A DNA stretch of 64,000 nt. It comes from Deltaproteobacteria bacterium (GTDB lineage Bacteria > SAR324 > NAC60-12). The stretch is taken from contig JAYOTF010000014.1 of NCBI GenBank assembly GCA_038150265.1, forward strand, positions 11,186-75,185, written 5' to 3'. Shown here in pieces: positions 13,933-50,223 of this stretch (positions within the stretch are counted from its first letter, which is position 1; each line of letters opens with the position of its first letter). Below the pieces are notes generated by a model. That model was not told the origin of the DNA, did not search any database, and worked only from the letters and a program-made list of their open reading frames with translations. The position numbers were made by a program, and so were the translations under genes.

Positions 13933-16581
13933 GTGTCTCGTTTTTTGGTGCCGTTCCGTCTCTCCATTCAACAGCAACTCTTCCTCCTGGTCGTTGTCGT
14001 CAGTGGCGTGTTGTGCCTGGCCATTGGTGGGTTGGTGCACCTGCGAACGGTCCAGTACCTGGAAGCCGCTCAGCTGGAAGACATGGTTCGGCTCCGGGCA
14101 CTGGTCGCCCAGGACATCAACCGCTTCTTTGAGCAGCATCACCACCCCAACTACCAGGTGAGGCTCCCGGAAGCCCTGGGAGCCCCCGCCCAGCGCTCCT
14201 CTTCGGCCAACCGGCTCCTGCTTCCAGAACAAGGCTCGTTTGATTCCCCCTTGAAGCGCTGGGAAGCCTTCAACGAGTTGGAGACCACCTGGCTCCTCAG
14301 TCAGCCCGAAGTCAACCACGCCCTGCAGCTCGCCCGTCAAGGGGAAAGCCTGCTCATCCAGACCCGAGTTCCCTCGCACCCCATCAGCTTCTACCTGCAT
14401 GTGTTCCGAGACGTCGGACGCCAGGATAACCAACTGGGGCTGTACGCGTTCTACCCCTCCGACCTCACCCGGCTTCTGCAGGAGCACCTCAACTTTGAGC
14501 GGCACGACAGCGGGTTGGTCTTCTGGCTCCGAGATGCCGCCGGGGTCCCGCTCGCCTATGCCGCAGACCCCGGCGAGTTTGATGAGTCCCCTCCGACTCC
14601 CCGGACCCTGCGCTCGTCCAACCAGTTGATGGGAGAAACCTCGATTCCGGTGCCCGGAGGCACCTGGACGCTGACCACCATCCGGGGGCGCTCCGAAATT
14701 CAGGAGCAGGCGTGGGAAATGGTGACGCCCCTCTGGGGACTGCTGGCGTTTGTCTTCGTGATCTTTGCCTCCGGAGGCTTTCTGGTCTCCCGGAAGATCG
14801 GGGTCAGCGTCAAGCAGGTGGTGGAGCAGGCAGAGCGCCTGTCTGCCGGCCGCTACCTCACTCCGGAAGAGACCCCGCTGACCCGCCAAAACGAGCTGGA
14901 CGCCATCTGCCAGGCCCTGCTGCAGATCTCTGATGGCTTGCGCGGCATGGAGCAGGAAGCCACCCGGTTCATTGAAGGAGAGGCCACCCGGATTGTGCAG
15001 CCGCGCTCCAACGAAGACAGCATGGCCTCCACCTTCAACCGCATGATTGAAGCGGTGCACCAGCGGGAAGGACGCCTCAAGGAACAAGGTGAGCTGAATG
15101 AGACCATCCTCAACTCCCTCACCGAGGCGATCTTCATTGTCCAGCCAGACGGACAGATCATCCGGACCAATCCCGTTGCCGCTTCCTGGCTAGAGGGAAA
15201 CCCGGCGGAGACGGCCAACCTGATGCACCTCTTTGCCGATGAGCAGCAGCTGCATGAGCAGGTTCTCAAGCAACTGCAGCATCATCTGGAGCTGCAACAG
15301 GAGACTCCGGACTTGTTGCAGCAGACGCTTGAGGCCATCCCGCTCCCGGTCATTGGCATCCGCCCAGACAGCTCGATTGCCCTGGTCAACGATCGGTTTC
15401 TTGCAGCAACCGGTTACGAGACCTCCCTGCTCAACCAAGCCTTCGGCACCCTCCTGCCTTCCGAGTTTCAGGACAAGCATGAGGAGTACGTCGATCACTT
15501 CTTTGACGCCTCCTCCCTTCGGTCGATGGGGCAGGGCGTCCGTTTCCCGCTGATGACGGCAAAGGGGGGCAAGCGCTACTTTGAGGTGGCTTTGATTCCA
15601 CTCCATGGAGAAAATCCGCTGGCGCTGGCGTTCCTGGCCGACCCGGCGACTCAGGAGCGTTGGGAGATCTTCCGACTCGTGTACTTCTCCAGCCTCTTTG
15701 ACAGCACCGAAAACCAACGCGTCCAGCAGCTCAAGAAGATGAGTGGCGAGGAGATTCCGGTGCTCGTCTCCACTGCGGTGCTCCACGACCGTGCCGGCAT
15801 GCTCAACGGCGCCGTTGTTGCCATGCGTGACCTCACCAGCTTCCAGCGTGTGCAGCGTCAGCTGCAGCAGTCTGCCAAGCTCGCCTCGCTTGGAGAGATG
15901 GCCACCGGGGTGGCACACGAGATCAACCAGCCCCTGACCTTCATCAACGGGGTGCTCTTTGACCTCGTTGAGGACCTGAACGACGGAGTGCCCCTTGAGC
16001 CCCAACAGACCCTGCAGGACCTCAAGGAGAGCCAGCGTCAGGTCCAGCGCATCACCAAGATCATCCAGCACATGCGCCTGTTCGGACGCCAGCACTCGGA
16101 TGCTCGTCAGCCGGTGAGGCTTCGAGAAATCATCAATAACGTCATGCTGTTGCTCGGCAAGAGCCTGCGAAATGCCAACCTTGAAGTGGACCTGACCTAT
16201 CCGGAGGATGAGGAGCTGCTGTTCCAGGCCAACCCCATCCAGCTCGAACAGGTCTTCATCAACCTGCTCCAGAACATCATTGATGCCATGGAAGAGCTGG
16301 TCCTCCCCCGGGAGCGACGGTGGGTCCACATCCAGCTCAAGCGCCAACGGGGCAACGGCCTCGTGCTGCTTGAAGACAACGGCCCCGGCATTCCAGAGGA
16401 AGTCGTGGAACGCATCTTCGACCCCTTCTTCACCACCAAAGGTCCCAACAAGGGCACCGGCCTGGGCCTGTCCATCTCCCTCGGCATCATTGAAGCACAC
16501 GGAGGACGCCTCCAGTGCCGGACTCAGGTTGGCAAGGGAACCACGTTTGAGATCACCCTGCCGCTCTCCCAGGAAGCATGA
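13933..16581 (+). CDS. Membrane sensor histidine kinase (periplasmic domain, HAMP-like, PAS, HisKA, HATPase)
   Basis: Two TM segments, [45 protein letters not shown]; start uncertain. Confidence 0.92.
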
Positions 16582-18299
16582 GCCCACTCCGAAAAATCCT
16601 GGTTGTGGATGATGAACCCCTGGTCCGCCGGACCATTGAGCGGTCGCTCCGGACCCTGGAGGTGGACCTGCACACGGCCGAAAATGGCGCAGAGGGGCTG
16701 CAGCAGATTGAGGCCCTGCACCCCGACGTGGTGGTGCTGGACCTGCGCATGCCGGTTCTGGATGGCCTGGGGGTGCTGCAGCAGCTGGACCTGCGTCCCG
16801 ATGCCCCTCCAGACGTCATTGTCCTCACCGGGCATGGAGACGACGACGAGCTACGCGCCTGTTACGCTCAAGGCGCCCGAGCGTTTCTGAAGAAGCCCTT
16901 CAATCCCATTGAAATGCGAGCCCTGGTGCAGCAAAGCCTCACCATCCGAGAAGCCCAGCAGGCCCTTCAGGAAGTCAACCAGCAACTGGAGCAGCGCGTC
17001 CGGGAACGCACCCAGGACCTGAATCAGCTCAATGAAGCCTTCCGGCGCTTTGTTCCCCGGCAGTACCTCGAGCGGGCGGAGTCGGCGCAGATGGAGGCCT
17101 TCCGTCCGGGGCACTTTCATGTGGAACCGATGACGGTGCTGTTTCTGGACCTCCGGGACTTCACCAACCTCACAGAGCCCCTGACGCCTCTGGAGACCCT
17201 GGAATTCCTCAACCGCTTCTTTGGCCTGATTGTTCCTGTCATTGAAGCGCACGATGGCTTTGTTGACAAATTCATGGGCGATGGCCTGATGGCCCTCTTC
17301 GACCGCAGTGAAGGCGCCCGGCACGCCGTACAGGCGGCGCTGGAGATGCAGGAGGTCCTTCAGGTCCACAATGCCGAACGCGAGCGGCTGCAGCAGCGCC
17401 CGTTGCGCTTTGGGGTCGGCATCCACACTGGCCTGGTCGTGGTGGGGACCATCGGCTCCGACTCCCGCCTCGATTCCACGGCCATTGGCGACACCATCAA
17501 CTCCGCCTCCCGTCTGGAGCAACTGACCAAGCAGTACGGCAGCTGGTTGCTGATCACGGAGACCACGCTCAAGGACCTGGCCACCAGCGAGTTTCAGACC
17601 CGGATGATCGACCGCATCCGCTTTCGGGGCAAGCGCAACCCGCTGCGCATCTATGAGGTCTTTGACCACCTGCCCCTCTCGGCCCAGACCCTCCGGCAGG
17701 AACAGGCGCCCCTGTTTGCCAAGGGGATGGCGCTTTACCAGCAGGGCGCCTTTGAAGAGGCGCTGGACGCCTTTGAGCAGTGCCTCAAGGTGGACCCCGG
17801 AGACAGCATCGTCGTCGAGTACCTCCGGCGCTGCCACACCTTCCTCAAGTACCCCCCCGAGCACTGGGAAGGCATCATGGATGCCAGTGACGAGCTGCTG
17901 CAGCGGGCGCGTCGTCGCACCGCGCCTCGGCTTCCCTTCAGCAGCCCCGCGTGGGTGCAGCGGAATCCGGAACACATCATTCCCGCCCAAACCCTCGACC
18001 TCTCTCGCTACGGATTGCGACTTGCGCTGGAAGAGGCCGCGGGCATTGGAGAAATCCTCATGGTCCGGATCGACCCCCAGCACCTGCAGCTGGAAATCGG
18101 CCTCGACCGTCCCTTTGAAATGCTCTCCCAGGTGGCGTGGAGTCGGGAAGCCCCGCAGGAAGAGCCCCTCCTGCCCTGGCAAGTGGGAGTCGAGTTTGTG
18201 ACCCTGGATCCGGAAGAGGAAATCTGGCTCAACCGCATCCTCATCAACCTGTCGGAACAGGTCCCCAGTTCCTCTCCTCCCGAGGTGTCCCATGCCTAA
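16578..18299 (+). CDS. REC - class III adenylate cyclase - TPR - PilZ protein
   Basis: REC (VVDD, DLRMP, KPF); FLDLRDFT, DKFMGDG, TAIGDTINSASRLE; TPR; RTAPR...DLSRYG. Confidence 0.9.
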   Translation: MSPLRKILVVDDEPLVRRTIERSLRTLEVDLHTAENGAEGLQQIEALHPDVVVLDLRMPVLDGLGVLQQLDLRPDAPPDVIVLTGHGDDDELRACYAQGARAFLKKPFNPIEMRALVQQSLTIREAQQALQEVNQQLEQRVRERTQDLNQLNEAFRRFVPRQYLERAESAQMEAFRPGHFHVEPMTVLFLDLRDFTNLTEPLTPLETLEFLNRFFGLIVPVIEAHDGFVDKFMGDGLMALFDRSEGARHAVQAALEMQEVLQVHNAERERLQQRPLRFGVGIHTGLVVVGTIGSDSRLDSTAIGDTINSASRLEQLTKQYGSWLLITETTLKDLATSEFQTRMIDRIRFRGKRNPLRIYEVFDHLPLSAQTLRQEQAPLFAKGMALYQQGAFEEALDAFEQCLKVDPGDSIVVEYLRRCHTFLKYPPEHWEGIMDASDELLQRARRRTAPRLPFSSPAWVQRNPEHIIPAQTLDLSRYGLRLALEEAAGIGEILMVRIDPQHLQLEIGLDRPFEMLSQVAWSREAPQEEPLLPWQVGVEFVTLDPEEEIWLNRILINLSEQVPSSSPPEVSHA

Positions 18300-19428
18300 G
18301 AACCGCATCCTCCTTGTCGATGATGAAGAAATTGTTCGCAGTACCGTCCGACGCGCCCTCCGTCATGAAGCCGTTGAAATCGCAGAGGCTGAAAATGGAC
18401 AGGTCGCGCTGGAAAGCATCCGGAGCTGGGAGCCCGATGTGGTCTTCCTGGACCTCCGGATGCCGGTGCTGGATGGAATCGGGCTGCTGCAGGAGCTTCA
18501 GCTGACGCCTGAGGTTCCGCTGCAGGTCATCATTCTGACCGGACACGGCGATGATGAGGAGCTGCGGGAGTGCTACCAGCTGGGCGCCCGTGCCTTTTTG
18601 CGCAAGCCCTTCAACCGCATTGAAATCCGGGCCCTGATGCGCCAGAGCCTCGACTTCCTCAAGTCTCAGCGGCAGCTGCGCCTCGCTCTTTCCCTGAGGT
18701 CGGAGCAGCTGGAGCAAACGGAGGCCGAGCTGTTTCAGGCCTCCAAGCTCTCCCTCCTCGGCGAGTTCACTGCCGGCATGGTGGTGGACCTCAGTCAGCC
18801 CATCGGCTTGCTGAGCCTGGCGGTGGAAAGTGGCCGGAAGGCCCTGGAGCAACGGGATTGGGAACGGATGGAGCGCGTTGTCAACCGCCTCGGGCAGGCC
18901 ACTCAGGAGACCATGGACCTCCTGGACCGCATGCGTTCCTTTGGTCAGCAAAACCTGGAGTCGCCCTACCCGCTGCGCCTGAATGAGACCCTGCAGAAGA
19001 CCCTCAGGCTGCTGGAGCAGCCTCTGGAAAACGCCGGCATTTCCGTCAGCCTGGACCTCCAAACGGGGCTCCCGGAGGTCCAGGCCGTCTCCGGACAACT
19101 GGAGCAGGTCTTCACACACCTGATCCTGAACGCCAAGGAGGCGCTGCTGCTCAATCGCGCTGAAGGAGAGCGCACCCTGCACCTGCAGACCCGGAGCACG
19201 CCCACAGCGGTGCAGGCCCTTGTGCGCGACAACGGCGGAGGGGTGCCCGAAGACATGGAGCCGCACCTCTTTGACACCCTTTACACGACCCGGGACGGGA
19301 CGGCCGCTGCAGGGATGGGGCTCTCCATCAGCAAACGCTTGCTCGGACTCTACGAGGCTGATATTCTGTTAAACAATTACCCTCATGAGGGAGCGGAGTT
19401 TGTCATCACGTTCCCCCTGAAAATCTGA
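18292..19428 (+). CDS. REC - HATPase hybrid with degenerate H-box (pseudo-kinase)
   Basis: REC intact; GMVVDLSQP in place of [11 protein letters not shown]1 and G2 boxes present. Confidence 0.85.
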   Translation: MPKNRILLVDDEEIVRSTVRRALRHEAVEIAEAENGQVALESIRSWEPDVVFLDLRMPVLDGIGLLQELQLTPEVPLQVIILTGHGDDEELRECYQLGARAFLRKPFNRIEIRALMRQSLDFLKSQRQLRLALSLRSEQLEQTEAELFQASKLSLLGEFTAGMVVDLSQPIGLLSLAVESGRKALEQRDWERMERVVNRLGQATQETMDLLDRMRSFGQQNLESPYPLRLNETLQKTLRLLEQPLENAGISVSLDLQTGLPEVQAVSGQLEQVFTHLILNAKEALLLNRAEGERTLHLQTRSTPTAVQALVRDNGGGVPEDMEPHLFDTLYTTRDGTAAAGMGLSISKRLLGLYEADILLNNYPHEGAEFVITFPLKI

Positions 19429-19457
19429 CCTGCCCTCACGTCTACGTCACTGATTCC

Positions 19458-20228
19458 ATGCCAGATTCTGTCATGAAAAAACCTAATTTATTGTTAGTCG
19501 ATGATGACGCCAGCATGTTGGCCTCGCTGCTGGACTTGCTGGAGGAGGATTACACGGTTTATACCGCAGAAAACGGAGAGCGGGCCCTTGACCTGCTCCG
19601 GACGTCCGGAGTGGACTTCCCGGTGGTGGTCTCTGACCAGAGCATGCCGCGTCTGCCAGGACATGAACTGTTTCGCATCATTCACACGGAATTTCCTGAC
19701 ACGGTGGGGATCCTGTTTACCGGCTTTCCGGAGGTGGAAAGCCTCATTCAGGCGGTCAATGAGGGGCACATCTACGGCTGCCTCCGCAAGGACTTCAAGG
19801 CTCAGGACCTCGTGCAGCTGGTCAACCGGGCCTACTCCTGGCAGGAGAGCCTGCGGAGCCTCAAGGCTCAAGCGGGCGTGGGTGCCACCGAACTGCTGGA
19901 GCAGGAGCTGCAGCGGGCGTGGCGGTATGGGTTGGAGTACGTGGGCGTCCTGATTGACTGGTCGGGGCCGGCCTCCACCGAGCAGCTGAAGCCCAGGCTC
20001 CGCAAGACCGACGTGGTGGGCAACCTGAATGAGTCACGGAGCCTGGTGCTCCTGACGCACACGCCTCTGGAAAAGGCCCGCCCCGCCCTGGAACGCCTCT
20101 TGGCGACCTGCCCGGAATGCCAACTCGGCATCCTGAAGCCCAGCAACGAGCCTCCGAACTCTGCAGAAGCCTACCTGCTCAGCCTCAGTCAGGAAACCTT
20201 CCAGGAAGTCACCCAGCCCCTTCCTTAA
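19458..20228 (+). CDS. Response regulator with degenerate GGDEF-like output
   Basis: LVDDD, SDQSMP; C-terminal ELQRAWRY...IDW...LRKTDVVGNLNESRSLVLLTHT. Confidence 0.8.
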   Translation: MPDSVMKKPNLLLVDDDASMLASLLDLLEEDYTVYTAENGERALDLLRTSGVDFPVVVSDQSMPRLPGHELFRIIHTEFPDTVGILFTGFPEVESLIQAVNEGHIYGCLRKDFKAQDLVQLVNRAYSWQESLRSLKAQAGVGATELLEQELQRAWRYGLEYVGVLIDWSGPASTEQLKPRLRKTDVVGNLNESRSLVLLTHTPLEKARPALERLLATCPECQLGILKPSNEPPNSAEAYLLSLSQETFQEVTQPLP

Positions 20229-20584
20229 AGATCCTCCAGCATGGCCATCAGCTCCGGAACCTTGAACGGCTTGTCCAGGAATTTCCAAACGGCCAGGTCG
20301 TCAAAGAGGTGCTTGAAGCTGACGCCTTTCACATCAGCTCCACCGGACATCACGATCACCCGAAAGTCCCACCCACGTCCTCGAACGGTCCGGAGCAGCT
20401 CTTCCCCGTCCATCTCTGGCATGATGTAGTCCGTGATCATCAGATCCGGATGTGCCTCCTCCAGCACCGTCAGGGCCTCCTTCCCGTTCATGACCCCCTG
20501 AACCTCGTGGTCCAGGGTTTCCAGAATGTCAATGAGGACGTCTCGGAAGACAGCGCTGTCTTCCACCACAAGTATCTTAGCCAT
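20225..20584 (-). CDS. Single-domain response regulator
   Basis: ILVVEDS, ITDYIMP, VMSG, KPF; start trimmed to ATG 20584. Confidence 0.92.
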   Translation of the reverse strand: MAKILVVEDSAVFRDVLIDILETLDHEVQGVMNGKEALTVLEEAHPDLMITDYIMPEMDGEELLRTVRGRGWDFRVIVMSGGADVKGVSFKHLFDDLAVWKFLDKPFKVPELMAMLEDL

Positions 20585-22214
20585 GCCGGGTCTCAGAGTG
20601 GGAATCAACAGAGAATTTCGGGAGTTGGATGTGAAAGCAGGCGCCCGCGTCTTGGTTTTCCACCGTCAACCGGCCTCCCAGATGCTGCTCCACAATCATG
20701 CGGGACATGTGCAGTCCCAGTCCGGTTCCTTGACGGTCCCGCTTTGTACTGAAGTAAGGCTCAAAGATCCGTTCCTTGAGTTCGTTGGGAATGCCACCTC
20801 CGGAGTCTGCCACACTGAGCAGGAGCGAGGTGTCCTGGTTCACCAGCGTAAACGACAGGCGCCGGTTGGCTTCCGGCACACTCTGCAGGGCGTCCACCGC
20901 GTTGCTGATGAGGTTCAGCAGCACCTGCAGCAATTCGTTGGGCAAGGAGTCGATCGGGTCCACCTCTTCAAATGAGAGGGCGACCTGGACCTGAAAGCGC
21001 TCCAGGCGTTGTTCCATGAGGCTCAGGGCCTGCTGGCAGACGGTCTTGACACACGTCGGCTGCTGCTGCTGCTCAGCCTGGAGCATCTTCCGGAAGTCTT
21101 CAATGGTTTGGGAAAGGTACTCCGTCTGTGTCTGAATCTGCGTCAGGCCTTCCCCCAGCGCCTGCTCGCTCAGCTTGTGGAGCTGCCGTTTGAGGATCAT
21201 GCCCTGTGCCAGGGTGCTGATGACCGCAAGCGGTTGGCGCCACTGATGCGCCACCATGCCCAGCACCTCGCCCATGGTCGCCAAGCGCGTTGCCTGCCGG
21301 AGCTGCTTTTGGGACTCCAGCAACGCCTCGTTCGCCTGCGACAGCTCAGCATTGGACCCCTCCAGGTTCTCCTCGGCGAGGGTCCGCTCCTCCATCAGCT
21401 GCACCATGGTCTGCTGATACACCTTCACGGCCTCCATCAGCTGGACCACCTCATAAGTCGTCATCTGTTTCGGATCAAAGCGCATGGGCCGCACCAGGTG
21501 GGTGCGGTCAGCATTTTGCCACCGCAGGCTGTGCTCCGAAATCTTGTCCGCCAGGCCCATGAGGGGCAGGCTGAGGCGCCGGGAGAGGTAGTTGACGAGG
21601 ACCAGGGAGACCGCCAGGCTGATGAGCACCATGACCGTCAGGTTCTGAATCTCCTCACGCAGGAGTCCGGTCTGGAAGTCGTCGTTGAAGAGGACCATCA
21701 GGCGCCCGAGTGGCGCCCCACGGTTGTTGAGCAACACCGAAATCTCCATGAACTGCTCCCCGGGCTCCAGCACCCGGTGGCTCAGTTGCAGGCGCTCAGA
21801 GAGTTCCACTTTCTTGCTGAAGAATCCCTGGGCCTTGTAGCCCTGGAGGGGAACGGTGCCACTGTCGAGCAATCCCACCACCCGGCGCTTGGGGAGCCCA
21901 TTGGCTTGAAAGACAACCTCGTCCGATGCATCCAGCACCACTCCTTCGGGGTCCAGGACGTACACCAACTCCACCTGAGGCAGGGCACTCATTTCCTCTA
22001 GTGTGATATTCAGCAGCGCCCAGTTCCGAGACAGCACCGAATCCGTACAGTCTCGCACAAAGGTCATCACCAGCCACTGGTTGAGCTCCAGCTGCTGTTG
22101 CTGCTGAGACTGGGTGGCATACCAGATCTGGTAGGCAAACATCAGGGATGCCGTCAGGAGGAGCAACCCTCCAAACCAAAGAAACAGCTGAGATTGAATC
22201 CGCAGGCGCTTCAT
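20577..22214 (-). CDS. Membrane sensor histidine kinase
   Basis: Two TM segments, H-box AHQWRQPL, NLISNAVDA, DSGGGI, FEPYFSTK, GTGLGL. Confidence 0.92.
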   Translation of the reverse strand: MKRLRIQSQLFLWFGGLLLLTASLMFAYQIWYATQSQQQQQLELNQWLVMTFVRDCTDSVLSRNWALLNITLEEMSALPQVELVYVLDPEGVVLDASDEVVFQANGLPKRRVVGLLDSGTVPLQGYKAQGFFSKKVELSERLQLSHRVLEPGEQFMEISVLLNNRGAPLGRLMVLFNDDFQTGLLREEIQNLTVMVLISLAVSLVLVNYLSRRLSLPLMGLADKISEHSLRWQNADRTHLVRPMRFDPKQMTTYEVVQLMEAVKVYQQTMVQLMEERTLAEENLEGSNAELSQANEALLESQKQLRQATRLATMGEVLGMVAHQWRQPLAVISTLAQGMILKRQLHKLSEQALGEGLTQIQTQTEYLSQTIEDFRKMLQAEQQQQPTCVKTVCQQALSLMEQRLERFQVQVALSFEEVDPIDSLPNELLQVLLNLISNAVDALQSVPEANRRLSFTLVNQDTSLLLSVADSGGGIPNELKERIFEPYFSTKRDRQGTGLGLHMSRMIVEQHLGGRLTVENQDAGACFHIQLPKFSVDSHSETRHG

Positions 22215-22221
22215 GTTTCCT

Positions 22222-24662: not shown

Positions 24663-24710
24663 TCTCCTCACACAAGAAAAGGCATTACGTCGTCACGCCT
24701 CGCATTCGCT

Positions 24711-27726: not shown

Positions 27727-27733
27727 GGTCGGC

Positions 27734-28354: not shown

Positions 28355-28373
28355 GTAAAAAACCTTTCTGTAT

Positions 28374-34943: not shown

Positions 34944-34981
34944 AAAAACTCCTTAATGTTCGTCAAACCGTAGAAACCGGA

Positions 34982-35007: not shown

Positions 35008-35014
35008 AAATGAC

Positions 35015-37138: not shown

Positions 37139-37182
37139 AAGTACCTCATCAGATGAAGTGTTGGGAAAAGCATGGATGGGAA

Positions 37183-40000: not shown

Positions 40001-40052
40001 ATGCTGGTCTCAGTTACTTGATGAAATGCCACTGATGGCCCGTCACACGGGA

Positions 40053-42756: not shown

Positions 42757-42769
42757 CAGGCGGTCTCGG

Positions 42770-44926
42770 TTAAAGTAACAAACTCAGATCTTCCCCTGTC
42801 AGGACCAGCAAGGGGGCACCTGTTCCCATCACAATGCACCCCTCAAAGCCTCCTTCTGCGAGGAAGGGATGCAGGAAGGGGCGGATGACCCCCTGAGTGA
42901 ACTTGAGGATGCGGTCGGCATGAAAGGCCATCTGCTGGCGTCGGGAATCCTCCAGCACCAGAATCACACCCGCCTGGGGCGCCCCAGGCGCCTGCCCCAG
43001 CCCCAGCCGGGCCTGGAGGTCGAGGTAGTGACACGCAATGCCTCGGTGCCGGAACACCCCATTTTCCGGAACCTCCGGATGCAGCGACAGGTCCACAATC
43101 TCTCGGATGACGTCGTACCGGACCGCAATGGTCCGTCCCGCCAGTTCCACCACCAGCACCTTGCGGGACTGCAACCCCAGGCGCAGTGGACAGAAGAGGG
43201 TGATCTCGGAACCCTTCCCGAGCTCCGAGGCAATGCGGACGTCGCCCCCGTGGTGCCGGATCGTGCTGGCCACCACATCCATGCCCACCCCGCGGCCGGA
43301 CACATTGGTGACCTTCTCCGCCATGGAGAAACCGGGCGCCATGAGCAGCTCAAACACCTCCTCATCGGTGTACTCGGCATCAGGCTGCGCCAGCCCCCGC
43401 TCCAAGGCTTTGTTGAGGACCCGCTGGACGTCAATGCCGTTGCCGTCATCGGAGACGGTCAGGCAGAGCATTTCCGGCTCCAGACGCGCTGCGACCCGCA
43501 GGTTTCCGACGTCGGGCTTCCCCCTTTGCTTGCGGACATCCGGCGTCTCAATGCCATGGTCGAGCGAGTTCCGGATCAGGTGCACAAACGGATCGCCCAG
43601 GAGGTCAATCACCGAGCGATCCACTTCCAGGTGCTCGCCTCGCAGCTCCAGCGACACCCGCTTGCCCAGGTCCCGCTCCAGCTGCCGGAGCATCCGGGGC
43701 AGTCGATCGAACAGCTCACTCAGGCGAGACGCCCGGAGCTGCTGCAGCGACTCCTGAAGGCCGCCGAAGCGCTGCTGCACGCGTTGAACCGCCCCCCGCA
43801 TTTCGAGAGACATCCGGGGGTCGAGGCTCTGGCGGGTCTCCTGCTCCAGGGCATCCAGGTGGTTCAGCTCCGTCACCACCTCTTCAGCATGACGCGTGAA
43901 CTCGTTGAGGTCGTCCATGCCGATGCGGATCATCTCGCGCCGGGGCGCCTGAGCCGCATTGGCCGGAGCAGGCGCACTGGCCGGAGCAGGCGTCCGGGCG
44001 GAGCCGAGCCCGAGCATTTCGAGCGCAAACTCACTGGCATCATGGGAGCGGACGTTGCACTTGCGCTCCAGGCCTTCCACCCAGAACTGCTTCCAGAACT
44101 GCTCCACCATGTCAGGAACCAGGCGGGCCAGGGCGCTGAGCGAGTCCCAGTCCAGCACCGGCTCAGGCGCATCCGGATAGAGGAGCCGGTCCATCTGCTG
44201 CACCAGCGGTTCATAGCGCTCAATGCCCTCCGGCGGCAACCCTGCGCCCGCGGCAATCAGCTCCTCCAGCCCAATCAGCACCTCCCGGACCCCTGGGGTG
44301 ATGTCGTCTCCCTCCGGAGTCAGCACCGACTCCAGCAGAACGCTCCGGACCACCACGTCCACCTCAAGGGATTGCTTCTTGGCAAAGTAGGTTTCCAGCG
44401 TGTCCAGGGCATCCAGCACCTCCTGAGGCGGAGGCGCCGCGGCACTGCGGGCCCGTCCAGACTCTGCCTGCTCCACCAGGTTCCGGAGGCGGTTGGCCAG
44501 GGGCTCCACTTTTTCCTCGGAAGGCTCCTCCTTGTTGAGGCCCTGCAGGAAGCGGTCGAAGCGGTCATCGAGCTTCATCTCCTGCTGCCGCATCCGCTCC
44601 AGCGCATCCTGAAGCAGGTCAATGCCTTCCAGCACCCGGGTCTGCTCGCTTTCGCGCAGCGCCCGGTTCTGTCCCTTGAGCTGCTGGAGGTAGCTTTCAA
44701 AGACGTGGGCAAAGGACTGGAGCGCCATGAGGTCAAAGAACCCGGCGGTGCCCTTGACGGTGTGGACCCAGCGGAAGATTGCGGCCAGGGTCTCAATGGG
44801 CTGCTCCTCCAGATGCTCCAGGTCTTCCTGAATCAGCTCCAGGCCGTTGAGGGATTCCTCCACAAAGGCCTGAATGATCTCGGGGTCAAAGAAGGAGTTG
44901 ACTTCCGGAGTCGTCGTGTCGCTCAT
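42770..44926 (-). CDS. cheA: Chemotaxis-like histidine kinase CheA (2)
   Basis: FRWVHTVKG, DPFVHLIRNSLDHGIE, DDGNGID, SGRGVGMDVV; start trimmed to ATG 44926. Confidence 0.93.
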   Translation of the reverse strand: MSDTTTPEVNSFFDPEIIQAFVEESLNGLELIQEDLEHLEEQPIETLAAIFRWVHTVKGTAGFFDLMALQSFAHVFESYLQQLKGQNRALRESEQTRVLEGIDLLQDALERMRQQEMKLDDRFDRFLQGLNKEEPSEEKVEPLANRLRNLVEQAESGRARSAAAPPPQEVLDALDTLETYFAKKQSLEVDVVVRSVLLESVLTPEGDDITPGVREVLIGLEELIAAGAGLPPEGIERYEPLVQQMDRLLYPDAPEPVLDWDSLSALARLVPDMVEQFWKQFWVEGLERKCNVRSHDASEFALEMLGLGSARTPAPASAPAPANAAQAPRREMIRIGMDDLNEFTRHAEEVVTELNHLDALEQETRQSLDPRMSLEMRGAVQRVQQRFGGLQESLQQLRASRLSELFDRLPRMLRQLERDLGKRVSLELRGEHLEVDRSVIDLLGDPFVHLIRNSLDHGIETPDVRKQRGKPDVGNLRVAARLEPEMLCLTVSDDGNGIDVQRVLNKALERGLAQPDAEYTDEEVFELLMAPGFSMAEKVTNVSGRGVGMDVVASTIRHHGGDVRIASELGKGSEITLFCPLRLGLQSRKVLVVELAGRTIAVRYDVIREIVDLSLHPEVPENGVFRHRGIACHYLDLQARLGLGQAPGAPQAGVILVLEDSRRQQMAFHADRILKFTQGVIRPFLHPFLAEGGFEGCIVMGTGAPLLVLTGEDLSLLL

Positions 44927-45345
44927 GAGCCTCCTTTGCGGGCCTCTCGGGCGAGCTGCAACCAGTAATTGCGCCGCCGGAGCATCGTCTTGACGGCGTG
45001 GCCAAAGGAGTCCCAGTCGAGGGGAAAGAAGAACAGGTAGTCGGCGCCTTGCCGGTTGCTCCGGGCCACGGCTTCCAGGTCCTTCTCCCGGGCCAGGAAG
45101 ATCAGGCTGGTGGAGGGCGCCAGTTGCCGAGCCCGCTTCTTCCACTCAAAGCCATCAAAGCTGTCGCAGTTGATTTCAATGAGCAGCAGGTGGCACGGGT
45201 TGCGGCTGAGGAAGCTCATGAAGCCCTTGGGACTGTGGTGGTAGACCACCTCATAGTCGTCCTTGAAGAAGGTCTTCAGCTCCTCATTGGTCTCGGGCTC
45301 CGCCAGGGTCGCCGTGATGAAAGAGGCCTGAGGGGGCTCCGTCAT
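44923..45345 (-). CDS. Pseudo-receiver domain protein
   Basis: REC fold cues (HLLLIEIN..DGFE, GADYLFFFP) with Glu at the phospho-Asp position and no conserved Lys. Confidence 0.7.
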   Translation of the reverse strand: MTEPPQASFITATLAEPETNEELKTFFKDDYEVVYHHSPKGFMSFLSRNPCHLLLIEINCDSFDGFEWKKRARQLAPSTSLIFLAREKDLEAVARSNRQGADYLFFFPLDWDSFGHAVKTMLRRRNYWLQLAREARKGGS

Positions 45346-46223
45346 GCGTCCTCCCAGCGCTTGATCATCGTGATGCGGTTGCCGCTGTCACTCCACTCCA
45401 CCGCATCCATGATGCCCTTGATGAGCAACAGCCCCCGCCCATGCGTTTGCGTGGGGCTCGCATTGACGGCGCCTCGGTAGGCCGACGGGTCAAAGCCCGG
45501 GCCTTCGTCTTCCAGGGAGACCCGGAGCATCTCGGCGTCCAGGTCCACCTGAATCCGGACCTGACGGTCCTTGAAGGCCGGGTCCTCCATCCGAGAGGCG
45601 ACCATCTCCTCAAACTGCTCCCACGACTCATCCTTCAGGGATGACGGCAGCTCCAGGTTGCCGTGGATGACGGAGTTGGTCAGCGACTCCTGGAGGCAGA
45701 GGTCAATGAGGTGCACCGGAACCTGATTGCTTTCACAGAGGGGACGGTAGAGGGACCGCAGCGTCTGCACCGTGGCGGCCACCAGATCCGGACGGCTGGG
45801 AACCAGCAGGCGCAGCTTGAGGTTGCTGACCCCAAGGAGCTCCGTCTGGCGGTTGGTTTCTTGCTGCCGGACCTTGAGGCGATCGAGGGCCGACTGGAGG
45901 ACATGAAAGGCAAAGGGCTTGAGGATGAGGTCCACGGCGCCCAGCTTGAGGGCCTCCACCGAGGTCTGCACATCGCCATGCCCGGTGATCAGGATCGTCG
46001 GCGTCATGATGCGTCCCCGGACCATGCGCCGCAGGAGCTCCATGCCATCCATCACAGGCATGCGAATGTCCGAGAGGACCGCATCAAAGCCGGGGCCGTC
46101 CTTCAGGAGCTTGAGGGCCTCCTCTCCGTTTCCGGCGGCTTCCACCTCATAATCCGCATCCTCAAGCAGCTCAACCAGCGAGTCGCGCCACCCGGGTTCA
46201 TCATCGACCACCAGCAGCCTCAT
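45342..46223 (-). CDS. REC - RsbW/SpoIIAB-type anti-sigma Ser kinase
   Basis: REC (SDIRMP, KPF) plus ESLTNSVIHGN, EDEGPGFD, HGRGLLLI. Confidence 0.9.
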   Translation of the reverse strand: MRLLVVDDEPGWRDSLVELLEDADYEVEAAGNGEEALKLLKDGPGFDAVLSDIRMPVMDGMELLRRMVRGRIMTPTILITGHGDVQTSVEALKLGAVDLILKPFAFHVLQSALDRLKVRQQETNRQTELLGVSNLKLRLLVPSRPDLVAATVQTLRSLYRPLCESNQVPVHLIDLCLQESLTNSVIHGNLELPSSLKDESWEQFEEMVASRMEDPAFKDRQVRIQVDLDAEMLRVSLEDEGPGFDPSAYRGAVNASPTQTHGRGLLLIKGIMDAVEWSDSGNRITMIKRWEDA

Positions 46224-47422
46224 GAGGCCTCCTTTTGCTCCAGAGCATGCACCTCCACCCCCATCAGGGTGGCATCGTCATCAAAGCGGTCCTTGCCAGC
46301 AAAGTTCAGCACCGACTGCATGATCTTCTGGGTCATGCTGGAGAGGCTTTCATTGCGGAGGCTGAAGAGCGTCTTGCGCAAGCGGGGCTCGCCAAACAGC
46401 TCGGAGCTGCGGTTCTTGCCCCACGCCGGGTTGGTTTCCAGCAACGCGTCCGTGTAGATGAGGATCCGGTCACCCGGATTGAGCAGCACCTTGCCCTCGC
46501 CATACTGAACCACGTCGCTGGGCAACACCCCCAGCACCACGCCCTCGGTGGAGAGGCTGATGATCTCATCGTCCCCCTTGCGGATCAGGTAGGCCGGAGG
46601 GTGTCCGGCACAGGTGTAGGTCAGCTCATGGGTCTGCTCATCAAAGACCATGTAGAACAGGCTCGCGAAGCGTCCCGGAGGCATGTAGTCGTTGAGGGTG
46701 TCGTTGATGCGAGAGATGGCCTCCTGCGTTGAGCTGTGGCTCCCTCCCACCTGCCGGAAGGTGAGGCGGAGCATCATGGCAATCATTGAGGCAGACAGTC
46801 CATGACCCGTGACATCCGCGACCACCATCCCAATGAGGTGATCATTGAGGCGGAGGACGTCATAGAAGTCGCCGCCCACCTCATCCATCGGGATGAACTC
46901 CGCCTGAATCTGCAGGTGTTCGGAAATGTTGAGGCTGTGGGGCAGCAGCAGCTCCTGCGCCACCCGGGCCTGCTCCAGGTCGTAACGGCTTTGCTTCTGC
47001 AGGGAGATCAGGTGCTCATTCAGCATCTCCACCATCTCCAGGTGCCCATTCATGCGCCGGTTCTCCTGCAGCAGCTCGTGGTGCTTCAGAAAGACCGGAA
47101 AGAGGTGCTCCAGGATCTGGTCCGGATGCTCCTGCAGGAAGGAAAACTGAATCAGGTTCAGGTCCTCTTGCGCCTCCTCGTCTCCAATGCAGATCGCCAG
47201 CGTCTCCGGATACTTGTCCTGAAACCGCCTCAGCTCCTCGCCACTCCGGCCAATGATGATCTCCGGAGAGGCGCCTCCGGGCTGGAGGGTGCTGAGGACC
47301 TCCTCCACTTCCTGATACAGCTCCACCGTGAACAGGTGCCCGAGCTGCTGCTCCAGGATCAGGAACTCCGGTGTGGAGCCCACCAGCAGGATGAGGTTCG
47401 GTTTGGGAAACTGAGGACTCAT
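46220..47422 (-). CDS. PP2C (RsbU/SpoIIE-type) Ser phosphatase
   Basis: VGGDFYD, VADVTGHG, CAGHPP, YTDALLE, DDDATL. Confidence 0.93.
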   Translation of the reverse strand: MSPQFPKPNLILLVGSTPEFLILEQQLGHLFTVELYQEVEEVLSTLQPGGASPEIIIGRSGEELRRFQDKYPETLAICIGDEEAQEDLNLIQFSFLQEHPDQILEHLFPVFLKHHELLQENRRMNGHLEMVEMLNEHLISLQKQSRYDLEQARVAQELLLPHSLNISEHLQIQAEFIPMDEVGGDFYDVLRLNDHLIGMVVADVTGHGLSASMIAMMLRLTFRQVGGSHSSTQEAISRINDTLNDYMPPGRFASLFYMVFDEQTHELTYTCAGHPPAYLIRKGDDEIISLSTEGVVLGVLPSDVVQYGEGKVLLNPGDRILIYTDALLETNPAWGKNRSSELFGEPRLRKTLFSLRNESLSSMTQKIMQSVLNFAGKDRFDDDATLMGVEVHALEQKEAS

Positions 47423-47425
47423 GGC

Positions 47426-47770
47426 TCAGGAGGCAAGGCGTTCGAGGGCCACTTCCAGAGAAGGCGTGACCTGAAGGAAGCGGTCAATCTGCGTCAAGGC
47501 GATCGTCTGACGGACCACCTCGTTGGGACCACTGAGGAGGAAGGGAATGCGGTGACTGAGGGAAAGCTTGGAGCCGAACAGGATGATGCCAATTCCGGAC
47601 GAGTCGAGAAAGTCCAGGTCTTCGAGGCTCAGCACAATTCCAGACGGCGTTTCCTTGACCAACTCCTCCAGCTGCTGCTTGAGCTTGGACACGTTGGAGC
47701 TTTCCAGCGTCCCGGCAAGGGTGACCACCTGAACGGCGCCACTGGTGCTGAGTTCGATTTGTAGGGACAC
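47426..47770 (-). CDS. Anti-sigma-factor antagonist (STAS)
   Basis: LAGTLE, LDFLDSSGIG. Confidence 0.9.
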   Translation of the reverse strand: MSLQIELSTSGAVQVVTLAGTLESSNVSKLKQQLEELVKETPSGIVLSLEDLDFLDSSGIGIILFGSKLSLSHRIPFLLSGPNEVVRQTIALTQIDRFLQVTPSLEVALERLAS

Positions 47771-47845
47771 GTGAGGCGACCTTTCGAAGGGGAAACGGCA
47801 GGTTCGAGAGTTGGGAACGTGCGGGGTTCATCCAAGAATGGGTGA

Positions 47846-47904
47846 TTCCTTCCATCACTTTGGAAGGAAAGTGGCCATCATATCCGTCCAGTATTTTATT
47901 TCAA
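47846..47904 (-). promoter_or_regulatory. sigma70-type promoter plus 5' hairpin heading the long minus-strand signalling cluster
   Basis: TTGAAA-16nt-TATGAT (47877-47904) followed by TTCCTTCCA-N6-TGGAAGGAA (47846-47869). Confidence 0.55.
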
Positions 47905-48015
47905 GCTGATGTTTAGGAAAAATAGTGGATTATTGTTCCGGTCTCAGACCCCTTTTAAAGGTCGCCTTTTTCGCCATCAGGCTTGACATTTCAAGCGGCG
48001 CCCAACGGCTGATTT

Positions 48016-49803
48016 TCACGTTGCCTCAGAGGCTGGAAGCCAGATCCGGAAGGTGGCGCCTCGTTCGCCATCTTCATAGGCCACACCGCCCCCTTGCTCC
48101 CGCATCAGGTTGTAGGCAATGGAGAGCCCCAGCCCCGTTCCCTTTCCCAATTCCTTGGTGGTAAAAAAGGGATCAAACAGCTGTCCCTGCTGCTGTTTGG
48201 GGACCCCCGGGCCGTTGTCGGTCAGCCGCATCTCCACCTGCGCGGCTCCGGTCGTGAGGGGCTGGACGGTGACCGCGACCAGCAGGAATCGATTGGACTC
48301 CCCCTCCATGGCATCCAGCGCGTTATTCAGCAGGTTCAGCAGCACCTGTTCCGTCTGTCCCGGGTTTCCTTCCACACGCGGCAGGCCGTCAGGCCAGCTC
48401 TCCTGCACGGAAACCCCCTCATTCAGGAGCCGGTGCCGGATCAGGCTCAGTGCGTTGTTGAATGTCACCGGGAGTTCAAAAGCGGTCCGGACCTGCTCAT
48501 CCATTCGCCCAAAGGTCCGGACGTGATCGATGATGGCAGCCACCCGGCTGCAGGATTCCTGCGCCTTGGCCGTGGTCTGCAGGAGCTTCTCCCGAGGGAG
48601 CACCCGCTGGCGGATCAGTTCGAGGGAGAGGGAGATGTGAGCCAGTGGGGTGTTGATCTCATGGGCCATTCCAGTTGCCATCCGCCCCAATGAGTGCAGC
48701 TTCTCCTTGTGATACATTTCCTCCTGCAGGAAGGCCTCATTCCTCAGCTTCAGGGCCTTCAGGCGCGCAAACTTCCAGGAGGCGTACAGCAGCGCCAGGC
48801 CAAACAGGCAGTAGATCCCGAACAGGGGCACAAACTCCTGCAGCACCTGCTGGGCGAACTCATCGGCATCCAGAAACGAAATGAAGTACAACTGCTGGTT
48901 GCTGAACACCACGTCACCTCCCCGGTTAAGGGGCAGGTGGGTGGGAGAAAAACGGGTAAAACAGGCAATGCCCTCTTCATTCCTCAGGCACTGGCTCCGG
49001 AGAGTCGTCTCCTGCATCGCCTTCCAGGTGAGCGGTTTTTGCAGACGAAGGTTCTCGGCCTTCCGGTCCGGCAAACTTCCTCCCCATTCCTGGCTCGGGG
49101 CTTCCCCCATCACGTAGTAGCCGTCCTGATCCACCACCACCGACCGGGTCTGTTCTTCAGAACGTTCCACCTCTTTCAGCGCATCCAGCAGGTCGGCCCC
49201 CAGGTAGTTGAGCACCACAATGCTCACCGGAGCGTAAGACGAGGCCCCAGCCTTCAGCACGACCCGAAGGACTGGCTTGAGTGGGCGTTCCACCACGCCC
49301 CCCTCCACATTCAGGTCCAGCGCAGAAATGTAATACTGGTTGTGCTCCAGCCGGAGGCCTTCCTGAAAGTAGTAGCGGTCCCGTTTGCTCTGGAGTTGGC
49401 TCGGGGGCACCTTTTCCACGTCCCCCTCCCTGAAGTTGTAGCGCACCTGTTCCTGCCCAGAGGCGTCTAGCAAGCGGAACTGGTCATAGACCCCTCGGCT
49501 CTTCATGAACTCAGTCATGGTCTCATCCAGGTGGTCATGCGTTCCAAAGTCTCGGAACCCCACCTTGATGAAGCGCGCATCCGAGACCAGCAGGTCCACC
49601 TTTTCGCGCAACACCGCGGCTCCGAACACGGGGAACAGCAACTCCTCCGAATGGAGGGCGAGCGTTTTTTCGGCAACGAGCGAACGCCACGTGAGCCAGC
49701 TCAGGGTGACGATGAACACCACCACAGCCATGAGCAGACTCACAAACAGCCTCCGGTAGCTCTCCCAACCAATGGAGTCAGAGATCAGCTTGGACGTGGG
49801 CAC
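48016..49803 (-). CDS. Membrane histidine kinase with Cache-like sensor
   Basis: YDQFRLLDASGQEQVR, LQSKRDRYYF, YISALDLNVE; GMAHEINTPL, DNGPGV, GTGLGL. Confidence 0.92.
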   Translation of the reverse strand: MPTSKLISDSIGWESYRRLFVSLLMAVVVFIVTLSWLTWRSLVAEKTLALHSEELLFPVFGAAVLREKVDLLVSDARFIKVGFRDFGTHDHLDETMTEFMKSRGVYDQFRLLDASGQEQVRYNFREGDVEKVPPSQLQSKRDRYYFQEGLRLEHNQYYISALDLNVEGGVVERPLKPVLRVVLKAGASSYAPVSIVVLNYLGADLLDALKEVERSEEQTRSVVVDQDGYYVMGEAPSQEWGGSLPDRKAENLRLQKPLTWKAMQETTLRSQCLRNEEGIACFTRFSPTHLPLNRGGDVVFSNQQLYFISFLDADEFAQQVLQEFVPLFGIYCLFGLALLYASWKFARLKALKLRNEAFLQEEMYHKEKLHSLGRMATGMAHEINTPLAHISLSLELIRQRVLPREKLLQTTAKAQESCSRVAAIIDHVRTFGRMDEQVRTAFELPVTFNNALSLIRHRLLNEGVSVQESWPDGLPRVEGNPGQTEQVLLNLLNNALDAMEGESNRFLLVAVTVQPLTTGAAQVEMRLTDNGPGVPKQQQGQLFDPFFTTKELGKGTGLGLSIAYNLMREQGGGVAYEDGERGATFRIWLPASEAT

Positions 49804-49833
49804 ACGCCTCCTGACACGGCGAAACTCAACGTG

Positions 49834-50223
49834 TTACGCATCCTGTTCCAGAGCCGACCGCATGGCTCCCAGCAATTTTTCCCAAGAGGCGGGCTTCCCC
49901 AGGCACCGGTACGCGCCCAATTCGCTGCACTTTTGTTCAGTGGAGGCATCCAGGTGTCCGGAGTGGACAATGATGCGACAGCGGTGCTCCTCGTGCTGCA
50001 GGGTCTTCAAAACATCGATCCCACTCAGGTGAGGCATGTTCAGATCCAGCAAAATGAGCGCAGGCTGGTGGATTTGGAACTGCTCCAGTGCCAGCTTGCC
50101 ATCTGCGGCCTCCACGACCTGGTAGTCCTCTTCACAGAGATCGGCAAGTGACTGCCGCAGCATGTCGTTGTCTTCTGCAATCAGCAGGATGGGTTTACAC
50201 ACAGGCCTTTGTCTGGAATTCAT
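49834..50223 (-). CDS. Single-domain response regulator
   Basis: IAEDN, LLDLNMP, HSGH, GKP. Confidence 0.9.
   Translation of the reverse strand: MNSRQRPVCKPILLIAEDNDMLRQSLADLCEEDYQVVEAADGKLALEQFQIHQPALILLDLNMPHLSGIDVLKTLQHEEHRCRIIVHSGHLDASTEQKCSELGAYRCLGKPASWEKLLGAMRSALEQDA

Follow-up and report, generated by a model that had tools for sequence, protein, structure and literature searches.

The 64,000-nucleotide window analysed here (positions 11,186 to 75,185 of contig JAYOTF010000014.1, assembly GCA_038150265.1, from an uncultured bacterium of the SAR324 lineage) contains a block of 29 contiguous genes at 13810-50223, referred to below as the island, which spans 36 kb and in which 27 genes encode signalling proteins. 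In the reading that we favour, and consider moderately probable, its centre is a non-motor chemosensory operon resembling those of classes F7 and F8, with two cassettes of CheA, STAS protein, receptor and CheW, and it lies beside a CrsR-like partner switch split into separate proteins and beside two-component units; cyclic AMP (cAMP) synthesis gated by cyclic di-GMP (c-di-GMP) would be a plausible output. The most notable pieces are the cyclase-PilZ enzymes and the CheA-STAS pairs of the island and, elsewhere in the genome, a che operon with a receiver-cyclase.

All of the evidence derives from metagenome-assembled genomes (MAGs). The genome of the window (G000; its congeners are labelled G001 and G002, and a member of another genus G020) is 3.39 Mb in 87 contigs and 97.8% complete, with the window on contig C14. 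Judged by RpoB, the closest named relatives are MAGs of the SAR324 cluster, which share 72-73% identity with it. The G+C content of the window is approximately 61%. Open reading frames (ORFs) were chosen by G+C content at third codon positions (GC3), and 28 of the 30 ORFs scanned against Pfam matched one or more families at E<=0.001, the exceptions being 13041-13589, outside the island, and 25933-27891. The count of 27 signalling genes among 29 leaves out a fused major facilitator superfamily (MFS)/spermidine-synthase protein and an Oxidored_molyb-like protein, because these are not recognisable as signalling proteins. An initial annotation, made from the sequence alone, had described a 36-kb signalling block of about 28 genes, in agreement with this count. 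The inventory that it gave is present in full: two CheA, CheW (two genes), CheR, CheB, CheD, CheY, four His-bearing kinases, two His-less pseudo-kinases, three STAS proteins, a PP2C phosphatase, an anti-sigma kinase (a receiver (REC)-HATPase_c_2 protein) and two class III cyclase-PilZ fusions. It had omitted one methyl-accepting chemotaxis protein (MCP) with two transmembrane (TM) helices, two divergent soluble MCP-like proteins, the MFS-spermidine synthase (MFS-SpdSyn) fusion and the Oxidored_molyb-like protein. Both pseudo-kinases are real, as judged by alignment of the dimerization and histidine phosphotransfer (DHp) region: the acceptor His is Val in a 378-aa REC-DHp-like-HATPase protein (18292-19428, plus strand) and Ser in a 488-aa REC-REC-DHp-like-HATPase protein (29470-30936, minus strand), and neither protein matches HisKA. 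The absence of flagellar, pilus, DNA-binding and GGDEF/EAL families from the island also holds, in that Pfam, with permissive thresholds for unexplained proteins, matched no HTH, sigma-54, flagellar, pilus, GGDEF, EAL or HD-GYP family there; with PilZ domains present and GGDEF and EAL domains absent, c-di-GMP would be read rather than made in the island, as had been proposed. What did not survive is a 'degenerate GGDEF' at the C-terminus of a 256-aa response regulator (REC plus an orphan domain, 19458-20228, plus strand). This region has no Pfam match even at E<=5, its sole relative found is the G002 orthologue, and its AlphaFold2 (AF2) model has a mean predicted local distance difference test (pLDDT) value of 61.6 (low confidence). 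A feature search pointed to GGDEF clusters (score 0.90), and a GGDEF-like nature is no more than a lead.

Four genes of the island are on the plus strand (13810-20228) and 25 on the minus strand. Twenty of the latter form a run from 44926 down to 20225 (CheA718 to REC127) in which neighbours overlap or are separated by gaps of at most 94 bp; wider gaps precede CheA718 (415 bp) and STAS114 (246 bp). The block probably comprises about four transcription units, distributed over both strands, in a flagellated SAR324-type host. Promoter scans did not exceed shuffled sequence (1 promoter-like site versus a mean of 2.5, and 3 versus 2.6), and the terminator count was under the shuffle mean; two promoter-like sites fall in the gap 47771-48015. 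Contigs from four public runs of three studies, one of which may be the source of the window itself, cover 30/30 bins of 30001-50000. A single public contig of 9108 bp extends over 37378-46485 and another over 44571-49068. Because such contigs span them, the boundaries at which the che genes, the partner-switch unit and the HK595 unit meet are not assembly artefacts. Housekeeping genes border the island on both sides, with MinC/MinD, PrkA, purine synthesis and a glycine-betaine ABC transporter to the left and a cytochrome c and branched-chain amino-acid permeases to the right.

The chemosensory genes all lie in the minus-strand run, and their domains were assigned by Pfam unless another basis is given. 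CheA722 (37470-39638; Pfam and NCBIfam) has domains P1, P3, P4 and P5, and CheA718 (42770-44926) has P1, a unique middle region, P4 and P5; both carry the P1 His within an 'HTxKG' motif. The ORF of CheA718 is 791 aa long, and its true start is the ATG at 44926, behind AAAGGAGG, where the G002 orthologue also starts. The split-function model of R. sphaeroides CheA3/CheA4 was considered and set aside, both island CheAs having P1 with its His, P4 and P5. CheY120 (39638-40000) precedes CheA722, and its closest solved relative is PDB 4h60/4hnr (119.5 bits, E 8e-34), versus approximately 72-75 bits for E. coli CheY entries. According to the parts of the literature that treat these proteins, 4H60 is V. 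cholerae CheY4 (PMC13636085), which belongs to cluster III and is unable to bind FliM (PMC3774744), and no class model exists for CheY (PMC7184735). There are two CheW proteins, CheW170 (34431-34943) and CheW292 (40053-40931), the second with a CheW domain and another, weak CheW-like stretch. The adaptation genes are CheR (30933-31772), CheB (receiver and methylesterase; 28374-29711 is the ORF maximum and the start is probably near 29459) and CheD (27734-28507, likewise the maximum, with a start probably near 28370). For CheB and CheD, NCBIfam adds to the Pfam assignments: CheB matches NF001965 at 428 bits, over the cut-off, with an alignment from residue 87, and the CheD alignment begins at residue ~62. 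No CheZ, CheX, CheC or flagellar gene was matched in the island by Pfam.

The receptor of the CheA722 cassette is MCP727 (35015-37198), with two predicted TM segments and a periplasmic double four-helix bundle (4HB). Relative to E. coli Tsr it has two symmetric 7-residue deletions, that is, one heptad less per arm, and on this indel pattern it looks 34H-like with 2 TM. Tsr was taken as the 36H standard, in line with a statement on Tar-like receptors in PMC7184735. The best NCBIfam match of MCP727 is Aer2, over the signalling domain only and far under the cut-off. At the corresponding position of the CheA718 cassette is a 490-aa coiled-coil protein (40931-42403) with an MCP-tip-like motif, FLAMNAALETSR, and a feature score of 0.95 to 'methyl-accepting transducer' clusters. 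It is probably a divergent soluble MCP-like protein, which is a lead only: BLASTP against MCP727 matches the tip motif only, and hhalign against the family of the 597-aa protein described next gave a probability of 4.5%, not significant.

The third receptor-like protein (597 aa, 25933-27726) starts at Met56 of a 652-aa ORF, at 27726, and has no Pfam family. It was classed as a soluble MCP-like protein with a degenerate tip from a family profile and an AF2 model. A library of 1.84 billion proteins yielded 657 relatives at E<=0.001, of which 77 reach E<=1e-10 and 15 reach E<=1e-30; most are ~600 aa long. An alignment (A2) was made of 50 of the best 59, nine (P0143, P0153, P0159, P0168, P0169, P0173, P0176, P0177 and P0178) being dropped for partial matches or odd lengths. 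Of these 50 members, 42 match MCPsignal and 8 match CheZ weakly (best E 1.1e-5); a search with the profile retrieves the T. maritima MCP 2ch7 (E 1e-23). An invariant motif, QFHDIxRQ..EH, which contains a DxxxQ like that of CheZ, runs through the family, whose C-terminus (RYTMxSERxIH ... LGDNVELF) is conserved as well. The AF2 model of the island protein (pLDDT 87.6) is all-helical with two long hairpins, and Foldseek found no PDB match at E<=0.001 for it, the best being the MCP model 9a69 (E 3.4e-3). CheZ was tried as a classification. The Pfam CheZ match has E 0.0084 and 16.4 bits, under the cut-off of 30.7, and when the family was compared with the true CheZ of G020, hhalign aligned QDLTGQ with HDITRQ at a probability of 1.8% (E 0.028). 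Since the Pfam, hhalign and Foldseek results are weak, this classification was rejected and the motif-level lead kept.

Each CheA gene is directly followed by a gene for a STAS-only protein, and a third STAS gene opens the partner-switch unit (all on the minus strand, assigned by Pfam and by alignment to SpoIIAA). STAS96 (37183-37473) overlaps the end of CheA722, STAS117 (42403-42756) is directly behind CheA718, and STAS114 (47426-47770) is the first gene of the unit upstream. At the 'DSSG' site of SpoIIAA, the phospho-Ser is present in STAS114 (DSSG) and STAS117 (TSSG), and STAS96 has Val (DVAG). STAS96 is therefore unlikely to be a classical partner-switch substrate. STAS114 is followed by a 400-aa SpoIIE-type PP2C phosphatase (46220-47422; Pfam SpoIIE E 7e-45, and NCBIfam), whose N-terminal region does not keep receiver residues, and then by a 293-aa REC-HATPase_c_2 protein (45342-46223; HATPase_c_2 E 1e-17), an RsbW-like Ser kinase of anti-sigma type. 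Among solved structures, the one nearest to the latter along the entire protein is PDB 9qih, 'SenB' (E 4.7e-29). There are three sigma-70 family matches in the genome: RpoD, a 559-aa RpoD-like protein and FliA, behind FlhF/FlhG. A complex of CheA718 with STAS117 was predicted with a score of 0.50 (runs of 0.50, 0.51 and 0.42; best of three controls 0.00), with a partner pLDDT of at least 82 and a contact agreement of at least 83%. In calibration, the mark was reached by 116 of the 157 solved complexes tried and by 2 of the 215 mismatched pairs; the passes with a score of at most 0.60 comprised 18 of the 157 solved complexes and both mismatches, and such passes are more often wrong than right unless the pair was likely beforehand. 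The model thus lends weak support to the binding of STAS117 to CheA718.

Two proteins of the island join a class III cyclase to a PilZ domain. One (413 aa, 24711-25952, minus strand) is an adenylate-type cyclase with a TPR-like linker and lacks a receiver, and its gene sits within the gap-free run of che genes. The other (573 aa, 16578-18299, plus strand) has the order REC-cyclase-TPR-PilZ with the receiver Asp present, and its gene comes directly after that of the sensor kinase HK923, their stop and start codons overlapping. Besides the Pfam matches, both were placed in an alignment (A1) with four relatives and in a separate alignment to 2w01, 6fht and 5x4t. Residues D38, K78, D82, N154 and R158 are invariant in A1; we take D38 and D82 to be the metal Asps, K78 the purine-specifying Lys, and N154 and R158 the transition-state Asn and Arg. 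The island proteins have Lys where Cya2 (2w01) has Glu, and Ser at the position held by Thr in OaPAC and Gly in Cya2. By the usual class III reading of these residues, both are predicted to be adenylate cyclases. The 573-aa protein has both canonical PilZ motifs, RRRTAPR and DLSRYG. The 413-aa protein has RSSRAER, in which the first Arg of RxxxR is Ser, together with DLSRSG, and in A1 that position is occupied by Ser or His in this protein and both of its orthologues.

Such fusions recur in the family, in which 22 of the 150 rows listed reach PilZ, from 8/41 genomes, and are scarce among the best database matches, in which 5 of the 120 listed carry PilZ. A third fusion of the same genome (597 aa; contig C33, L020:5531-7762) is preceded by a stand-alone PilZ gene and has ClpS/ClpA and type II secretion-like genes as neighbours, with no che genes nearby. 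A literature search found no paper describing a cyclase-PilZ fusion, which is not proof that none exists, and no described counterpart of c-di-GMP acting through PilZ on a cyclase. Such enzymes would let c-di-GMP act directly on cAMP synthesis and, being small and soluble, are testable in E. coli.

The island is conserved in one congener. When the 29 proteins were searched against its contig (tblastn), G002 proved to have 27 of them, from 13810 to 47770, in the same order and orientation, with amino-acid identities of 65% (Oxidored_molyb-like protein) to 98% (CheY120), and with flanks at a nucleotide identity of only 80-83%. The counterparts of HK595 and REC129 (C13:59558-61802) have 35% and 49% identity and are not orthologous; this distal pair occupies the same position in G002 and looks like a two-component system replaced at the island edge. 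Synteny in relatives, which the initial annotation had named as a check on its proposal, is thus found in G002 but not in G001, where the island was not found and unrelated genes lie behind the shared left flank. Across the phylum, residues 1-330 of CheA718 as query gave matches in 28/88 genomes, and relatives of the locus sought with the 597-aa protein were limited to the G002 contig. In G020, an orthologue of CheA718 (42%) is directly followed by a STAS gene (28%), and then by another CheA, a REC-PP2C, a true CheZ, a REC-RsbW, a FliG paralogue, a PilZ gene and a cNMP-MBL gene. Recurrence in this other genus is limited to the CheA-STAS, REC-PP2C and REC-RsbW parts, and the PP2C and REC-RsbW functions are again split into two proteins. 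This che supercluster (contig C1:95632-131650, ~36 kb) has three intact CheA genes and one split CheA, and also encodes a ParA-like ATPase, an Hsp70-like protein, a four-CheW-domain protein, CheV and HEAT-repeat proteins.

A second che operon of the genome includes a receiver-cyclase. On contig C6 (75898-92841), the order is CheY-CheX-MCP-REC-cyclase-HK-CheA-CheW-MCP-x-CheR-CheD-CheB, with a 450-aa REC-class III cyclase between the MCP and the kinase/CheA, and the operon is fully syntenic in G001 and G002. A che operon with a REC-cyclase was confirmed in 6/6 relatives of four genera, which had been picked because CheA and cyclase matches lay 1-3.4 kb apart among the matches listed. The order is MCP-CheR-REC-cyclase-CheA-CheW in G012, G013, G018 and G021, followed by CheB in G013, G018 and G021, the G012 contig ending inside CheA. 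No separate CheY occurs in this short form, and in four of the six relatives the REC-cyclase and CheB are the sole receivers of the operon. We know of no experimental study of a REC-cyclase in che clusters. The architecture has been noticed before, since REC-mononucleotidyl cyclases are listed among the response-regulator outputs of cheR-TPR clusters in the pertinent part of a 2012 survey (PMC3447774).

The same genome has three FliG matches (C7:57977, C87:158 and C1:78178), one at the end of a very short contig that may be a duplicate, and 17 flagellin matches over the cut-off, on C6, C13 and other contigs. There are two GGDEF proteins: a cNMP_binding-GGDEF protein (C6, L026:2941-4362, minus strand) and a 1124-aa ORF with four tandem GGDEF domains (C4:75407-77314). 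Its cNMP-binding proteins are also two, the cNMP_binding-GGDEF protein and a cNMP-MBL protein, and three of its six PilZ domains are fused to cyclases. Together, the cNMP-GGDEF protein and the three cyclase-PilZ proteins suggest a reciprocal wiring of cAMP and c-di-GMP.

The remaining genes of the island are mostly two-component genes. The plus-strand unit opens with HK923 (13810-16581), a membrane sensor kinase with 2 TM, HAMP, PAS, HisKA and HATPase domains, whose start is probably near 13927-13933, the G002 alignment beginning at residue 40. The simplest reading of HK923 together with the REC-cyclase573, the 378-aa pseudo-kinase and the 256-aa response regulator is that of an ordinary two-component system whose predicted output is cAMP. 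The minus-strand run ends with HK501 (23166-24671), a 501-aa hybrid kinase of order REC-REC-HisKA-HATPase; a 315-aa exported or periplasmic Oxidored_molyb-like protein (22222-23169; Pfam E 2.6e-8, N-terminal hydrophobic segment); HK545 (20577-22214), a 2-TM sensor kinase with HisKA and HATPase; and REC127 (20225-20608), a single-domain receiver. The Oxidored_molyb-like protein is possibly a periplasmic partner of HK545. Upstream of the partner-switch unit, on the minus strand, are HK595 (48016-49803), a 2-TM sensor kinase, and its partner REC129 (49834-50223), probably a separate two-component system since neither is orthologous in G002. These assignments are by Pfam, with TM prediction for the membrane kinases; the acceptor His is present in HK923, HK545, HK501 and HK595, and the acidic pair and acceptor Asp are kept in 12/12 REC domains of the island. 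The MFS-SpdSyn fusion (845 aa, 31800-34337, minus strand), a membrane protein between CheW and CheR, matches NF037959 over the NCBIfam cut-off in addition to Pfam, and is 87% identical at the same place in G002.

From the observed domain content, residues and synteny, we infer the phosphotransfer steps, the binding steps and both nucleotide activities of the following scheme. The 20-gene run would encode an 'alternative function' chemosensory pathway related to early F7 and F8 systems. One cassette would use a soluble receptor-like protein and the other the 2-TM MCP727, and the two would have in common one CheY, one CheR/CheB/CheD set and the third, soluble MCP-like protein. The arrays would control the two CheAs, and these would phosphorylate CheY120, CheB and some of the ten other intact receivers, candidates being the REC-REC pseudo-kinase, the REC-REC hybrid kinase, REC127 and the REC-RsbW-like kinase of the adjoining unit. 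Some sharing of receivers is likely because there are six kinases for twelve intact receivers. STAS114, the PP2C and REC-RsbW would form a partner switch like CrsR/CrsA or HsbR/HsbA split in two proteins. The CheA-adjacent STAS proteins may act on their CheA, as CheS does, and STAS117 may also be a substrate of RsbW. The cyclase-PilZ of the same run would make cAMP under c-di-GMP control, and because an adenylate cyclase-PilZ is encoded in the che run, the state of the pathway and c-di-GMP would converge on cAMP. Within the island, it is operon position alone that connects CheA with cAMP, and the C6-type operons may be taken as indirect support for this link. A wider proposal is that the SAR324 family sets cAMP through chemosensory arrays, with REC-cyclases in che operons, a c-di-GMP-gated cyclase-PilZ co-transcribed with a two-CheA array, a partner-switch reader and a reciprocal loop in which cAMP would drive c-di-GMP synthesis (cNMP-GGDEF) and c-di-GMP would act back on cAMP synthesis (cyclase-PilZ). 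We regard it as unlikely; if true, chemosensory output would be second-messenger cross-talk rather than motility.

Several observations weigh against the favoured reading. No public RNA run containing 36001-46000 was found. In the 413-aa cyclase the receiver is missing and the first RxxxR Arg is gone, and both its link to CheA and its binding of c-di-GMP are uncertain for this reason. The score of the CheA718-STAS117 model is weak, and may reflect the likeness of STAS and GHKL partners to the solved SpoIIAA-SpoIIAB complex. G001, which is 96% complete, lacks orthologues of the cyclase-PilZ and of both CheAs of the island; only G000, G002 and G020 (3/88) match the CheA718 query beyond the P1 domain, and the G020 supercluster has no cyclase-PilZ, MCP-like597 or MFS-SpdSyn. 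The whole arrangement is rare. Additionally, MCP727 with its 2 TM, periplasmic 4HB and 34H-like length differs from the stage-1/2 F7 receptor, which the survey of Ortega et al. (2020, PMC7184735), in its part on these clusters, describes as a soluble PAS-HAMP Aer2-type 36H protein, and the island order Y-A-S-M-W-x-R-x-B-D, with MFS-SpdSyn and a pseudo-kinase inserted, is unlike the published F7 order. By gene content and alignment, the core was filed as 'F7/F8-like' and was assigned to neither class.

The main alternative, serious though somewhat unlikely, is that the island consists of independent modules that accumulated side by side with no mutual signalling: one two-component system leading to cAMP (13810-20228), a second with accessory genes and a cyclase (20225-25952), the che operon, the partner-switch operon and a third two-component system. 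Adjacency alone would then have created the impression of 'three outputs of two CheAs'. This accounts for the two strands and the gaps before CheA718 and STAS114, for the non-orthologous HK595/REC129 pair of G002, for the reduced gene set of the G020 locus, for the third cyclase-PilZ on C33 without a che gene nearby, for cyclase-PilZ proteins being common in the family whatever their context, and for the REC-cyclase573 being behind its own kinase. It does not sit well with the 20 genes from CheA718 to REC127, many of which overlap, with the order of 27 genes being kept in G002 despite the divergence of the flanks, with a lineage that does place a cyclase inside che operons, or with the likely sharing of receivers among the kinases. 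The claim of the initial annotation that one locus combines three outputs stands in part: che, partner-switch and cyclase-PilZ genes do lie together in two species, but their integration is put in doubt by the approximately four units on two strands, and the unity of the outputs is further weakened by the absence of the island from G001 and of the cyclase-PilZ from G020, by the replaced HK595/REC129 and by the receiverless 413-aa cyclase. The other alternative, which we judge quite improbable, is ordinary flagellar chemotaxis, with CheY120 binding the motor, the STAS proteins tuning CheA like CheS, and the remaining genes as bystanders. In its favour, the genome has three FliG and 17 flagellin matches, the island has a full CheR/B/D adaptation set and an MCP with a periplasmic sensor, CheY120 is its most conserved protein (98%), the homologous supercluster of G020 holds CheZ, CheV-like genes and a FliG paralogue, and CheS acts in a motor pathway according to the relevant part of PMC12654446. 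However, CheY120 is far nearer to V. cholerae CheY4, the stage-1 F7 CheY reported not to bind FliM (PMC3774744), than to motor CheYs, the C6 operon has a CheY-CheX pair that could serve the motor, the island lacks CheZ, CheX, CheC and flagellar genes, and partner-switch genes are conserved alongside, as the survey passages describe for non-motor F7 clusters (PMC7184735).

The favoured reading, of a non-motor chemosensory operon beside a partner switch, has its nearest precedents in early F7 systems, as represented by V. cholerae cluster III, S. oneidensis Che1 and P. aeruginosa Che2. In the parts of the literature on these systems, stage-1/2 F7 clusters contain genes for a STAS protein (anti-sigma antagonist) and a serine phosphatase, and the function of early F7 clusters is called still unknown (Ortega et al. 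2020, PMC7184735), and in S. oneidensis an RpoS partner switch, formed by CrsR and CrsA, is encoded within the che1 locus (Fortier et al. 2022, PMC9855816). The Shewanella precedent cited in the initial annotation is thus borne out, and its statement that this is not a described system was too strong, given that STAS and Ser-phosphatase genes define stage-1/2 F7 clusters and that CheS is a second precedent. The cheY/A/W, MCP and cheR/D/B genes of early F7 systems are all in the island too, as are the STAS genes and the Ser phosphatase; similarly, the RsbW-like kinase has a receiver, as does CrsR, CheY120 has V. cholerae CheY4 as its closest solved relative, and a motor system is probably encoded elsewhere in the genome. 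Because of the STAS/Ser-phosphatase content, the CrsR/CrsA precedent and the CheY4-like CheY120, the core is placed near early F7. Unlike early F7 systems, whose hosts are gamma-proteobacteria, the island is found in SAR324, has two complete CheAs, each with its own STAS gene next to it, and includes pseudo-kinase response regulators, a hybrid kinase, MFS-SpdSyn and a cyclase-PilZ. CrsR and HsbR combine REC, PP2C and kinase in one polypeptide, whereas the island splits these functions between PP2C400 and REC-RsbW293. The possible likeness to F8 concerns the receptor, the one feature compared: the survey section on M. alcaliphilum ascribes a 34H receptor with two TM regions to F8 (PMC7184735), and MCP727 has one heptad less per arm than Tsr and 2 TM helices. 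CheS of S. meliloti is a STAS-only protein of a che operon which, according to a review (PMC12654446, citing Dogra et al. 2012), binds CheA and speeds the dephosphorylation of CheY1. STAS96 and STAS117 are, like it, roughly 100-aa STAS-only proteins encoded in a che operon, a likeness by description; unlike cheS, their genes are directly downstream of each CheA, and the present system also includes a kinase and a phosphatase such as a true partner switch has.

In the Wsp system, the CheA-like WspE acts on WspR, a REC-GGDEF protein, so that a nucleotide second messenger is the output. The C6-type operon (MCP-CheR-REC-cyclase-CheA-CheW-CheB) is formally its cAMP analogue, with a class III cyclase rather than a GGDEF protein as output, and would be the cAMP counterpart of Wsp. 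The island differs from Wsp in having no GGDEF domain and in that its in-operon cyclase has no receiver. In Xanthomonas campestris, XC_0250 and XC_0249 are a class III cyclase and a cNMP-binding-GGDEF protein through which a cyclic mononucleotide leads to c-di-GMP synthesis, as described in part of An et al. (2013, PMC3770947). The present genome likewise has one cNMP_binding-GGDEF protein; unlike the Xanthomonas pair, which uses cGMP and is encoded by linked genes, its cyclases look adenylate-specific and the cNMP-GGDEF gene is on another contig. Overall, what is new here is a second CheA-STAS-receptor-CheW cassette and the cyclase-PilZ enzymes, added to a known kind of non-motor pathway with a partner switch. 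The island would be a richer relative of early F7-type systems, from a distant phylum, that names a partner switch and cAMP as candidate outputs.

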